NCBI GenBank assembly: GCA_964426185.1
Contig: CAYRPF010000022.1
Span: 1 to 32,000, forward strand
DNA length: 32,000 nucleotides
DNA from: an uncultured archaeon
Lineage (GTDB): Archaea; Asgardarchaeota; Lokiarchaeia; Sigyniarchaeales; Promethearchaeaceae
Reading direction: 5' to 3'
Part shown: positions 4,233-8,068 of the stretch, piece after piece
Layout: each line of letters opens with the position of its first letter
Position numbering within the stretch: the stretch's first letter is position 1
Position numbers and translations under genes: made by a program
Notes under the pieces: generated by a model
Database searches by the model: none
What the model was told of the DNA's origin: nothing
What the model saw: the letters and a program-made list of their open reading frames with translations, nothing else

Positions 4233-4308
4233 TGGTAGCTCCTACCAGATTCGAACTGGTGTCAAGAGGGTCAGAGCCTCCCATGCTTGGCCACTACACT
4301 AAGGAGCT
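4233..4308 (-). tRNA. tRNA-Gln(CTG), intronless, CCA encoded
   Basis: Reverse complement is AGCTCCTTAGTGTAGTGGCCAAGCATGGGAGGCTCTGACCCTCTTGACACCAGTTCGAATCTGGTAGGAGCTACCA. It has a 7-bp acceptor stem with A1:U72 (typical of archaeal Gln), anticodon loop CT-CTG-AC and a GTTCGAATC T arm. Confidence 0.97.
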
Positions 4309-5277: not shown

Positions 5278-6000
5278 ATGGAAAAAACTGAAAATTTAGA
5301 AGAAACAATATATAAGAAACTCGAAAAGCTTAGTGAACCTGAAAAAAAAGTAAAGCTACCGCAATTCTTTCAAGCGTTTCCAGAAGGTTATGGTGAAGGG
5401 GATAAATTTATCGGTGTTAGGGTTCCAAACGTACGAAAAATTGCCAAACAATATCAAAACATTGAATTGAATGATTTAATTCCACTAATAACAAACGAAT
5501 TTCATGAGATCCGGCAGTGTGCTTTCATGATTCTCGTTAATAAAATGCAAAAGGCAAAAAAAGAAACCCAGCAAGAAGAAATTGTTCAATTTTATCAAAA
5601 ATACATAGAATACTGCAATAATTGGGATTTGGTTGATGGTACAGCTCCGAATATTCTCGGGGTTTATTTAATAAATAAAAATAAGGATATTCTCTATAAA
5701 TATGCTTGTAGTGGAGATTTATGGCTCCAAAGAATTGCGGTTCTCAGCACTTATTATTTTATCAAGGAGCGTAAATTTGATGATACATTGCAACTGGCGG
5801 AAATTTTGTTAGATAATCCCCACGATCTCATTCATAAAGCCGTGGGATGGATGCTGAGGGAGATAGGAAACCGACATCGACCTACTGAAGAAGCATTTCT
5901 GCTGCAAAATTATAAAAAAATGCCAAGAACCATGCTCCGATATTCAATTGAGAAATTTCCCCAAGAATTACGTCAACGCTATCTAAAAGGGCTTATTTAA
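5278..6000 (+). CDS. alkD: DNA alkylation repair protein (AlkD family glycosylase)
   Basis: GYGEGDKFIGVRVP, NNWDLVD, LWLQRIAVLST, DLIHKAVGWMLREIG and MPRTMLRYSIEKF. Confidence 0.93.
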   Translation: MEKTENLEETIYKKLEKLSEPEKKVKLPQFFQAFPEGYGEGDKFIGVRVPNVRKIAKQYQNIELNDLIPLITNEFHEIRQCAFMILVNKMQKAKKETQQEEIVQFYQKYIEYCNNWDLVDGTAPNILGVYLINKNKDILYKYACSGDLWLQRIAVLSTYYFIKERKFDDTLQLAEILLDNPHDLIHKAVGWMLREIGNRHRPTEEAFLLQNYKKMPRTMLRYSIEKFPQELRQRYLKGLI

Positions 6001-6014
6001 CCGTTGTTCTTCTT

Positions 6015-6493
6015 CTATTTGACCATTTTATTTTCTGTATTTGACCAAAGTTCTTCTTCCATTTGGTCTTTAAACTGCATAATCCTTAAGGTTAAAGGTT
6101 GTGCCAATTGACGGGAAACTGCGAGAGTTTATCAGCATCGGAAAGGATTTGAGCTTCAAGATTGTCAGCTGATTCCCCTAAAGAGAAGGAATGGGCGCGG
6201 ATAATATGGGTTAAAGCCGCGATTGGCTCAGGGTCTATATGTTTAGCTTTAAGAAACTTGGTTACAAGAGCAGCAGAAATGACTGCATGATTTTCAGAAT
6301 GATTTTTTTCCGAAATGAGGGGATTTCGGCCTATATCATGTAAATACACCGCAATCTCTAACAAATTCTTGTTGATCTTATTTTTATCTTCCAACCTTGC
6401 GGCAATTTGTTTACATTTTTTTAAAACTCTTTCAATATGCCCCCATCCGTGTAAATCATCTTGTAAATCGTAAAACTTTCGAGCAAAAGCTCG
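6015..6493 (-). pseudogene. Degenerate second copy of the HD-domain hydrolase (5' end deleted, internal frameshifting deletion)
   Basis: Reads RAFARKFYDLQDDLHGWGHIERV...AVYLHDIGRNP...IIRAHSFSLGE..LEAQILSDADKL. It then jumps frame to AVSRQLAQPLTLRIMQFKDQMEEEL, which matches PAAREIASLLIDRIRQFKKQLELEL of 6625-7287. About 40 codons are missing and there is no native start. Confidence 0.9.
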
Positions 6494-6559
6494 GTAGAAA
6501 ATTTTTACAAATGGCTGGCACGGTCAAATACTAGAGTTGGGACTAATAATGCTCAGCAA
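6491..6559 (+). pseudogene. 5' fragment of a second copy of the ESCRT-III-like gene
   Basis: Translates to SVENFYKWLARSNTRVGTNNAQQ, versus SVENFYKWLARSNTRLGTNNAQQ at 7358-7426 (22/23 aa identical). Confidence 0.92.
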
Positions 6560-6642
6560 AAATGCCTTGAACTATGTTAAGATATGCTATCGAGAAATTC
6601 CCTCCAGAAATACGACAGCAATACCTAAAGGGTCTGATTTAG
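6559..6642 (+). pseudogene. 3' fragment of a second alkD copy with an in-frame TGA
   Basis: KMP*TMLRYAIEKFPPEIRQQYLKGLI* versus KMPRTMLRYSIEKFPQELRQRYLKGLI* at 5917-6000. Confidence 0.92.
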
Positions 6643-7287
6643 TTGAAGTTCTAGTTCTAATTGTTTTTTAAACTGCCTTATTCTATCTATCAATAGGCTG
6701 GCAATTTCACGTGCGGCCGGCAGATAAAGTTTCTCATCAAGGTTTAAAAGTTTTTTATCGCAATGGGAAATAACTGCTGCAATATTGCCTCCATGTTTCA
6801 TTTGAAAAGCACAAACTCGAAAAATTCCCACAGCGCCCAGTGCATCTATTTTATCTGCATCAGAGAGAATTTGAGCTTCTAGAGTATTGGCTTGTTCTCC
6901 CAGGGAAAATGAATGGGCGCGGATGATATGGATTATAGCAGAAATAACATCTTCCGAAATTTTTTTAGTAGCAAGAAATTCGGATGCCAGAATAGCAGAA
7001 ATGGCAGCATGATTGGTTGAAGCATAATGTGCAGATTTTGGGGGATTTCGACCAATGTCATGCAAATAAACTGCGGCTTCTAAAATATTTTTATTAACCT
7101 TTTCTGAGATTGGTAAAAGGGATAAAATTTGCTGACATCGGCGCTGTACTCTTTGAATATGTCCCCATCCATGGAGATCATCCCATAAATCGTAAAATTT
7201 TTGAGCAAAATTCCGAATATCTGCTAAAACCTCGATTGAAAGATAAAGGGGGGTAAGATTGCGAAAAATATGAGAAGTATCGGGCAT
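6625..7287 (-). CDS. HD-domain metal-dependent phosphohydrolase
   Basis: HGWGHIQRV, YLHDIGR, NHAAISA, IRAHSF and LEAQILSDADKIDALGAVGIFR. Confidence 0.92.
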   Translation of the reverse strand: MPDTSHIFRNLTPLYLSIEVLADIRNFAQKFYDLWDDLHGWGHIQRVQRRCQQILSLLPISEKVNKNILEAAVYLHDIGRNPPKSAHYASTNHAAISAILASEFLATKKISEDVISAIIHIIRAHSFSLGEQANTLEAQILSDADKIDALGAVGIFRVCAFQMKHGGNIAAVISHCDKKLLNLDEKLYLPAAREIASLLIDRIRQFKKQLELELQLNQTL

Positions 7288-7351
7288 CGATGGATTGATA
7301 ATTTTGCGAAAAAAATAAAGGCATTTGTCAATAAGGTAATAGCAGAGAAAA

Positions 7352-8068
7352 ATGGGCTCAGTGGAAAATTTTTACAAGTGGTTAGCACGTTCAAATACCC
7401 GTCTTGGGACAAATAATGCCCAACAAACCATAATGGCGCTTAAGATTTTCAACCGGCAGTTAGAGGGGCAGTATAAACGCATGGAAATTCAAAGAAAGCA
7501 CGCCTATCAAAAAGCTCAAAAGCGTTATTCCGATGGAGACAAACATGCAGCTTTCAAACTTATGCGGAGTGCTCTGTTATATCGAAAATGGGCAGATAAA
7601 CTGGATGAATTTCGCACCGATTTGGATGATGTGCAATTTCAACTTTCTACCGCCCATGACATGAACAATTATGATGAAGTTGGCTATGATATGTTGAAAA
7701 CTCTCTGCGAACTCCGTTTAACCCTTGGAAATCCTCAAATTCAAAAAATGTTAAATGAATTAGATGTTGGATACGGTTCATTGCATAATGTTTATCAAGA
7801 TTTCATTAAATCTGAGGAATTGACGGAGAAATTACGTCCGTTAGAGGTAAGGGAGCGAGAGATTCGACAAGAATTTGGAGAAGTAAGTAAAACCAAGAAA
7901 ACGAAGGAAAATGATGAATCATCGATGGATAAATTGTTGCTGGATGAATTACCTGATACACCTGATGGAGCTGCTTCAAGTCGACAATCAAGTGGGAAGA
8001 ATTCCGATGATGAATTGTTTGATTTAGAAAAAGAGTTGGCACGATTGCGCAAAAAGCGCCAAGGTTAA
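7352..8068 (+). CDS. ESCRT-III/Snf7-superfamily protein, Vps2/24/46 (CHMP1-3)-like, divergent
   Basis: 238 aa and all-helical. It has an N-terminal amphipathic helix (VENFYKWLAR), a basic helical hairpin with a GDKHAA turn, an acidic C-terminal half, LPDTP (MIM2-like) and a terminal DELFDLEKELARLRKK (MIM1-like). Confidence 0.75.
   Translation: MGSVENFYKWLARSNTRLGTNNAQQTIMALKIFNRQLEGQYKRMEIQRKHAYQKAQKRYSDGDKHAAFKLMRSALLYRKWADKLDEFRTDLDDVQFQLSTAHDMNNYDEVGYDMLKTLCELRLTLGNPQIQKMLNELDVGYGSLHNVYQDFIKSEELTEKLRPLEVREREIRQEFGEVSKTKKTKENDESSMDKLLLDELPDTPDGAASSRQSSGKNSDDELFDLEKELARLRKKRQG

Follow-up and report, generated by a model that had tools for sequence, protein, structure and literature searches.

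How does a compact locus come to hold two versions of the same three genes, with each gene intact in only one of them? This question is raised by positions 5278 to 8068 of a 32,000-nucleotide (nt) stretch of DNA (the window) from contig CAYRPF010000022.1 of an uncultured Lokiarchaeial archaeon. Genes for a DNA alkylation repair protein (alkD), an HD-domain hydrolase (HD) and an orphan ESCRT-III paralogue are present there in two tandem blocks, and the dead copies (alkD', HD' and ESCRT-III') lie between the intact genes. The source of the window is contig C22 (39.6 kb) of a 3.26-Mb metagenome-assembled genome (MAG; G000) with 155 contigs and 92% completeness, and the closest labelled relatives in the protein collection are Candidatus Harpocratesius sp./Promethearchaeota. 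The locus is flanked by a CYTH gene and a ROK kinase gene. Comparison of the two blocks at the sequence level indicates that the hybrid locus is genuine and that its two versions differ to an extent comparable to that between species within the genus. The favoured explanation, to which we assign a probability of roughly 0.5, is import of one version from a sister lineage, closed by a single illegitimate joint.

The locus comprises the following features (ORF, open reading frame; features without a strand are given as unstranded).

5278..6000, + strand: alkD (DNA alkylation repair, 240 amino acids), intact; PF08713, E 5e-59
5916..6560, unstranded: unit A, 645 nt, comprising the 3' end of alkD, HD' and the 5' fragment ESCRT-III'; collinear with 6558-7427
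6015-6526, - strand: HD', the broken gene as a whole
6018..6128, - strand: C-terminal tail of HD', 37 codons, with its stop codon at 6015-6017; matches HD residues 189-217
6125..6496, - strand: core of HD', 124 codons with the H..HD..D motifs; the reading frame is open over 6092-6526
6092-6394, - strand: HD' as a called ORF, starting from TTG; PF01966, E 3e-11
6488..6489, unstranded: joint of a 145-nt deletion that corresponds to 7211-7355 of unit B
6489..6560, + strand: ESCRT-III' fragment that lacks a start codon, with codons 3-25 intact; aligned to 7358-7426
6557..6560, unstranded: novel joint of ESCRT-III' codon 25/26 to alkD' codon 213, with AAA(A) microhomology, read from the sequence
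6559..6642, + strand: alkD' fragment, last 27 codons plus stop, with an in-frame TGA at 6568-6570; codon comparison with alkD
6558..7427, unstranded: unit B, 870 nt, comprising alkD', HD, the intergenic region and the 5' end of ESCRT-III; repeat finder and local alignment
6625..7287, - strand: HD-domain hydrolase (HD), 220 amino acids, intact; PF01966, with orthologues in the relatives G001, G002 and X described below
7288..7351, unstranded: divergent intergenic region between HD and ESCRT-III, 64 nt, present in unit B only; sequence and alignment
7352..8068, + strand: orphan ESCRT-III paralogue, 238 amino acids, intact; weak Snf7 match

A repeat finder and local alignment revealed that units A and B lie head to tail, are 73-84% identical and collinear, and have their matching segments in the same order at spacings of 642, 722 and 867 nt. 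The tandem of two syntenic alkD-HD-ESCRT-III blocks described in the initial annotation of this DNA was thereby confirmed. The left end of unit A consists of the last 28 codons of alkD (5916-6000), and the right end of unit B consists of the first 25 codons of ESCRT-III. The alignment ends of A and B overlap at 6558-6560, and the structure contains one new joint, at AAA(A). Both end-fragments that a reciprocal trimming of the two blocks should leave are present, but they meet in this one joint rather than reflecting two separate deletions. HD overlaps alkD' by 18 nt, much as alkD and HD overlap in G001.

HD' had been described as broken, and this holds, but the damage is not diffuse. The core and the tail of HD' are each free of internal stops and stand in different frames; the gene was cut into these in-frame pieces by two clean deletions and not by random erosion. 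The 145-nt deletion took the first 26 HD' codons, the entire divergent intergenic region and the ATG of ESCRT-III'; in unit B, its flanks correspond to GAGCAAAA and GAGAAAAA. The second deletion begins immediately behind the SDADK motif, spans approximately 42 codons and puts core and tail into different frames. No ATG, GTG or TTG start was found upstream of the first metal-binding His in the frame of the HD' core. The amino acid identity of the core is 64-65% to HD and 72-73% to the homologue in species X, the nearest known relative. In the NCBI annotation of another assembly, HD' is listed as a 136-amino-acid protein, P0260, with its start at the window's ATT (6092-6502, - strand). All H..HD..D motifs are kept in P0260, and some residual expression or function of HD' is conceivable.

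Codon comparison of the dead fragments with the live genes revealed how the two versions have diverged. The 23 codons of ESCRT-III' differ from the live gene at 13 nt and one amino acid (3, 0 and 10 differences at the first, second and third codon positions). Of the 11 codons that differ, 10 do so synonymously, which leaves 22 of 23 residues identical, exactly as counted in the initial annotation. In alkD' (27 codons), 21 nt and five amino acids differ from the live gene, the TGA included, with 5, 2 and 14 differences at the three codon positions. Here, 18 codons differ; the earlier count of 13 synonymous codon differences was reproduced, but 22 rather than 21 of the 26 non-stop residues are identical.

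The proportions of synonymous (pS) and nonsynonymous (pN) differences and the ratio of nonsynonymous to synonymous substitution rates (dN/dS) were determined by the Nei-Gojobori method. ESCRT-III' showed a pS of 0.69, a pN of 0.077 and a dN/dS of approximately 0.04. For alkD', the pS was 0.86, the pN was 0.09 and the dN/dS was approximately 0.1 or less, with dS saturated. The HD' core gave a pS of 0.66, a pN of 0.24 and a dN/dS of approximately 0.18, and the tail gave a dN/dS of approximately 0.26. For a copy dead from birth, a dN/dS of at least 0.5 is expected. When an equal number of changes was placed at random, so few amino acid changes were obtained in 0 of 50,000 trials (P<2e-5 per fragment); when half of the differences were placed randomly on the dead copy, P was 0.004 for ESCRT-III'. 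The claim that both blocks evolved for a long time as functional genes is upheld by these ratios in all three gene pairs and can be regarded as well supported by the substitution pattern.

The time of inactivation was approached by polarising the differences with the relatives. Synonymous divergence between the units is saturated (dS of at least 1.6). The ancestral state is retained in the dead fragments, where ESCRT-III' has V and alkD' has A, P and Q. The V, which is the single differing residue of ESCRT-III', is the state in X and in P0244, and live alkD has S, Q and R where alkD' has A, P and Q. Most replacements fall in the live genes, and only R>stop and L>I are assigned to the lineage of the dead alkD'. 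One of the 211 dead codons is a stop, and two polarised amino acid changes were counted over approximately 114 nonsynonymous sites. Neutral decay since inactivation amounts to approximately 0.02-0.03 per site (upper limits 0.06-0.16). Because this decay is low relative to a dS of at least 1.6, both units were functional for more than approximately 90% of the time since their separation. By the same sequence measures, the joint and the deletions are recent.

Analysis of the relatives revealed one block in each. G001, a closed 4.36-Mb genome of the same genus, carries DUF1015, tRNA-Gln, CYTH, alkD, HD, ESCRT-III, ROK and methylase genes in the gene order of the window, tightly packed and with a single block; no remnants of a second block were found at this locus. 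G002 carries one HD and one ESCRT-III, with an extra gene of 451 amino acids between alkD and HD. No second alkD and no second copy of HD were detected elsewhere in G000, G001 or G002. In species X, alkD (P0122), HD (P0002) and ESCRT-III (P0242) probably lie together on one 2,612-bp contig, judging from the same longest-contig figure listed for each of them. A contig of 2,612 bp is too short for a tandem like that of G000, which needs 2,740-2,791 nt. Relatives with both blocks intact in tandem, named beforehand as the mark of an old duplication, were not encountered in G001, G002 or X. The alkD product is 72% identical to its G001 orthologue and 82.5% identical to P0122, and ESCRT-III is 79% identical to its orthologue in G001, 70% in G002 and 84.5% in X (P0242). 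The orphan ESCRT-III is rare: 8 proteins matched at E<=1e-20 among 5.8 billion, all on Promethearchaeota-type contigs, and no second ESCRT-III copy was found in the lineages of these 8 matches. Compared by nucleotide, the short fragments are near-equally similar to G001 and G002 (75-86% over 63-83 nt), and the saturation of synonymous sites makes this comparison uninformative.

To place the second version, the HD proteins were compared over 122 shared columns. The identity is 72% between HD' and X, 65% between HD' and HD, and 66% between HD and X. A maximum-likelihood tree (LG+C20) had the topology ((HD, strain P0001), (HD', X)), with a support of 80/80 for HD'+X. On these sequences, the age of the split between versions A and B is estimated to equal at least roughly that of the split from X.

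Other assemblies show whether the lesions are particular to this MAG. Exact protein look-ups revealed the HD' ORF with the frameshifted C terminus on three further contigs: a 7,775-bp contig (NCBI/JGI), where the ORF has a K>N variant and a 100% identical alkD lies on the same contig; a 35,459-bp contig; and a 664-bp ENA contig, where the ORF has an F>C variant. P0260 (MFYRAFARKF...), from the 7,775-bp contig, encodes the same 145-nt deletion joint. Unit A with its lesions is real and is common to the sampled strains. ORFs across the 6558 joint had no exact match in the protein collection. With no more than 3-4 nt in common between its two sides, this joint is beyond what a k-mer assembler could have produced.

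The favoured explanation would run as follows. Two versions of the block evolved separately as functional genes until synonymous saturation was reached. One illegitimate recombination between ESCRT-III codon 25 and alkD codon 213, at AAA(A), would then have yielded ESCRT-III' and alkD' together, with alkD and ESCRT-III each remaining intact once and HD twice. Of the two HD copies, the left one was redundant and would have been lost afterwards through the two deletions, that of 145 nt, which also took the shared promoter region together with the ATG of ESCRT-III', and that of approximately 42 codons. In the initial annotation, an imported segment was integrated beside the resident locus, and one copy of each gene was then deleted; since one joint gives both end-fragments, fewer steps than this would suffice. 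The donor would be a sister lineage about as distant as X. The event itself might have paired a homologous crossover on one side with an illegitimate joint on the opposite side, either as homology-facilitated illegitimate recombination (HFIR) or as an unequal exchange in a transient heterozygote. The unscarred single-block haplotype would, on the import explanation, have an alkD that ends in ...YAIEKFPPEIRQQYLKGLI. A foreign origin of the second version and this mechanism are plausible, and the foreign side could be either one. The more specific proposition, that the locus is a recent footprint, resolved to the base pair, of chromosomal DNA of another species in a Lokiarchaeial genome, brought in via HFIR and common to the sampled co-occurring strains, is given slightly less than an even chance.

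Several observations weigh against import. A donor is needed, as is recombination across a nucleotide divergence of approximately 22%, and homologous anchoring at approximately 78% nucleotide identity is expected to be inefficient by the measure of bacterial systems. X is the nearest relative for alkD, HD', HD and ESCRT-III, on both sides of 6558; a switch of nearest relative at ~6560, as the earlier proposal would have it, was not seen. The amino acid likeness of the fragments to X consists of ancestral states and is silent on the donor, and a single metagenome scan with HD as the query, in which records close to the window's genome may be missing, returned distant loci only (35-42% identity). 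The 6558 joint is documented in one assembly only, on the 39.6-kb contig, and other contigs end at ~6415 (P0259, without its N terminus) or start at ~6765 (P0252). The approximately unbiased (AU) test leaves a clade of HD' and HD standing (p=0.148). Import from a diverged relative is favoured by the 80/80 grouping of HD' with X, but the AU test keeps it from being established. Much of this would also fit an old tandem duplication in which the complete block was copied in an ancestor, no later than the split from X, and was trimmed afterwards. Selection would have kept all gene pairs up to saturation, and a recent deletion from ESCRT-III' codon 26 to alkD' codon 212, together with the two HD' deletions, would have left the present locus. 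The dN/dS values and the recent death of the fragments are equally compatible with such a history, which also accommodates the HD'+HD clade left open by the AU test and the nearness of X on both sides; tandem duplication is a common mutation, and no transfer across the ~22% sequence gap is required. It asks, however, that three functionally unrelated gene pairs be retained for species-scale time and that each pair then lose one copy, in complementary fashion, at almost the same moment. No second block or remnant is present in G001, G002 or X, the 8 ESCRT-III matches give no sign of a second copy, and under the best tree, with HD'+X, the other block must have been lost independently in X. An old duplication is considered unlikely, although it deserves to be kept in mind well ahead of the explanations that follow.

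The joint could also have been made outside the cell, if alleles of two populations were concatenated (a linearised bubble) or if a chimeric read was assembled. Its presence in the contig of this MAG only, the breaks of other contigs at ~6415 and ~6765 and the strain variants that cluster between these breaks would all be in line with an artefact. Its two sides, however, have nothing in common beyond AAA(A): their k-mers do not overlap, and none from the flanks is duplicated. Unit A bears two inactivating deletions and alkD' bears a TGA, and each of the two supposed strain alleles alone would carry a dead ESCRT-III or a truncated alkD. In addition, at least two contigs, each with its own variants, also have unit A linked to this alkD, and the 90% cluster holds no ESCRT-III call starting at Met28. 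An assembly artefact is therefore judged highly improbable. The most economical one-step route to exactly this topology, with a microhomology joint, would be a simple partial duplication in place, with its ends at alkD codon 213 and ESCRT-III codon 25 and its fragments dead from birth. Such fragments should show a dN/dS of at least 0.5 and many stops at a dS above 1.6. The observed ratios were 0.04 to approximately 0.1, with one amino acid change against 13 nt changes in 23 codons and one stop in 211 codons. Because of the low dN/dS and the few stops, a partial duplication of this kind was rejected, and next to no credence is left for it.

The strains differ near the joint. The HD proteins of strains P0001 and P0253 show 5-6 amino acid differences from the window's HD, all in the last 40 amino acids and none in the first 174; P0252 is cut at HD residue 174 by the contig end. 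The strain variants cluster between ~6415 and ~6765. This distribution suggests a tract around the joint (6625-6765, HD residues 175-220) that may be polymorphic or recombinant at the strain level. The differences in the last 40 amino acids of HD had prompted a Campbell-type model, with a circularised donor and a crossover near HD residue 180. This model was discarded: the HD' tail is only approximately 50% identical to the HD tail of either strain, and the strain difference of 5-6 amino acids falls short of the divergence between A and B. Gene conversion from HD' as the origin of the strain differences was also rejected, as no variant residue matches HD'.

Known recombination scars offer the closest comparison. 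HFIR has been put forward to explain orphan immunity genes and 3' effector remnants in the type VI secretion system (T6SS) clusters of Vibrio cholerae, and orphan 3' ends in Rhs and contact-dependent inhibition (CDI) loci (PMC5361080, where de Vries & Wackernagel 2002 and Prudhomme 2002 are cited). The likeness to such scars lies in a homology anchor on one side, which is presumed for the present locus, and an illegitimate joint on the other, and in a truncated fragment of the resident gene beside an intact incoming copy, where the remnant resembles the working genes of other strains. The present locus has a 3-4 nt joint of non-homologous positions and a truncated fragment beside an intact homologue. 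It differs in its genes, which encode a DNA glycosylase, an HD hydrolase and an ESCRT-III paralogue instead of polymorphic toxin modules, in its host, an Asgard archaeon instead of bacteria, and in a joint that leaves both 5' and 3' fragments. By this analogy, the locus would belong among HFIR scars.

In a tandem paralogue cluster (PMC2568036), the evolving unit reportedly takes in the 3' portion of an ORF, the intergenic region behind it and the 5' portion of its neighbour. There too, what is repeated or exchanged disregards gene borders and extends from within one gene to within another, but it belongs to a multicopy bacterial paralogue family, whereas the present locus has two copies, one of them dead, of three unrelated genes. 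Segmental tandem duplications share with the locus the head-to-tail units, the one 3-4 nt microhomology joint and the truncated genes at the joint. Unlike in these, the copies here are synonymously saturated with the protein conserved, which is incompatible with fragments dead at birth. Chromosomal recombination across species-level divergence has reportedly been obtained in haloarchaeal interspecies hybrids by Naor et al. in 2012 (Curr Biol). Those hybrids arose by homologous replacement of large tracts at ~86% identity in the laboratory; the present case involves ~78% identity and an illegitimate joint in a natural population. The locus would add a case from an Asgard archaeon to a type of recombination scar that is already known, and no new function is implied.

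Discussion of gene flow in Asgard archaea has centred mostly on mobile elements and on phylogenetic incongruence. If import is the correct explanation, the locus would be a datable, sequence-level case of gene flow between diverged Asgard lineages through their own recombination machinery, in which an incoming orthologue displaces the resident one by a single joint and the sole redundant gene then decays. It would then give direct evidence that natural inter-species recombination, and not mobile elements alone, remodels core loci among the archaeal relatives of eukaryotes. If the old duplication is correct, the locus would be a case of ordinary paralogue loss. Neither import nor old duplication implies a new protein function. 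In practice, the interval from alkD to ESCRT-III (2.8 kb versus ~2.15 kb) provides a strain marker of a size suited to PCR or to single reads.

The assignment of the genes rests on profile searches. AlkD matched PF08713 with 200 bits (cut-off 21), covering profile positions 3-213 of 213. Against PF01966 (cut-off 22), HD scored 46.2 bits and the HD' ORF scored 43.9 bits, and the HGWGH, LHDIGR and SDADK motifs are visible in HD and HD' alike. ESCRT-III matched Snf7 (PF03357) weakly, with 19.9 bits, below the cut-off of 27.3; its orthologues P0242 and P0243 carry a precomputed PF03357 match. The orphan ESCRT-III is approximately 30% identical to two canonical ESCRT-III genes, which are located together on contig C3.

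The extra 451-amino-acid gene of G002 (L023 2691-4046, contig C101) occupies the place where G000 and G001 have the 18-nt overlap, and it resembles an M20/ArgE-type peptidase by eye only. The alkD/HD boundary appears, from these gene arrangements, to have been rearranged more than once in the genus. A second HD match in G002 (C177, L027 292-621) was dismissed as an unrelated truncated paralogue in a different context. This HD-domain ORF of 109 amino acids is 49% identical to HD' and adjoins a histidine-kinase-like gene; it is possibly another pseudogene.

The window also carries a tRNA-Gln(CTG) gene (4233-4308, - strand) between the DUF1015 and CYTH genes, in the same place as in G001. The tRNA-Gln genes of the window and G001 differ in the anticodon-stem and variable regions. 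A role of this gene as a perfect homologous anchor found no support: G000 and G001 share just two stretches of ~20-24 nt in it. Outside its own genus, alkD is 55-60% identical to homologues from Firmicutes and other bacteria and ~63% identical to those of other Promethearchaeota, and its sequence hints at a transfer between domains at some depth.

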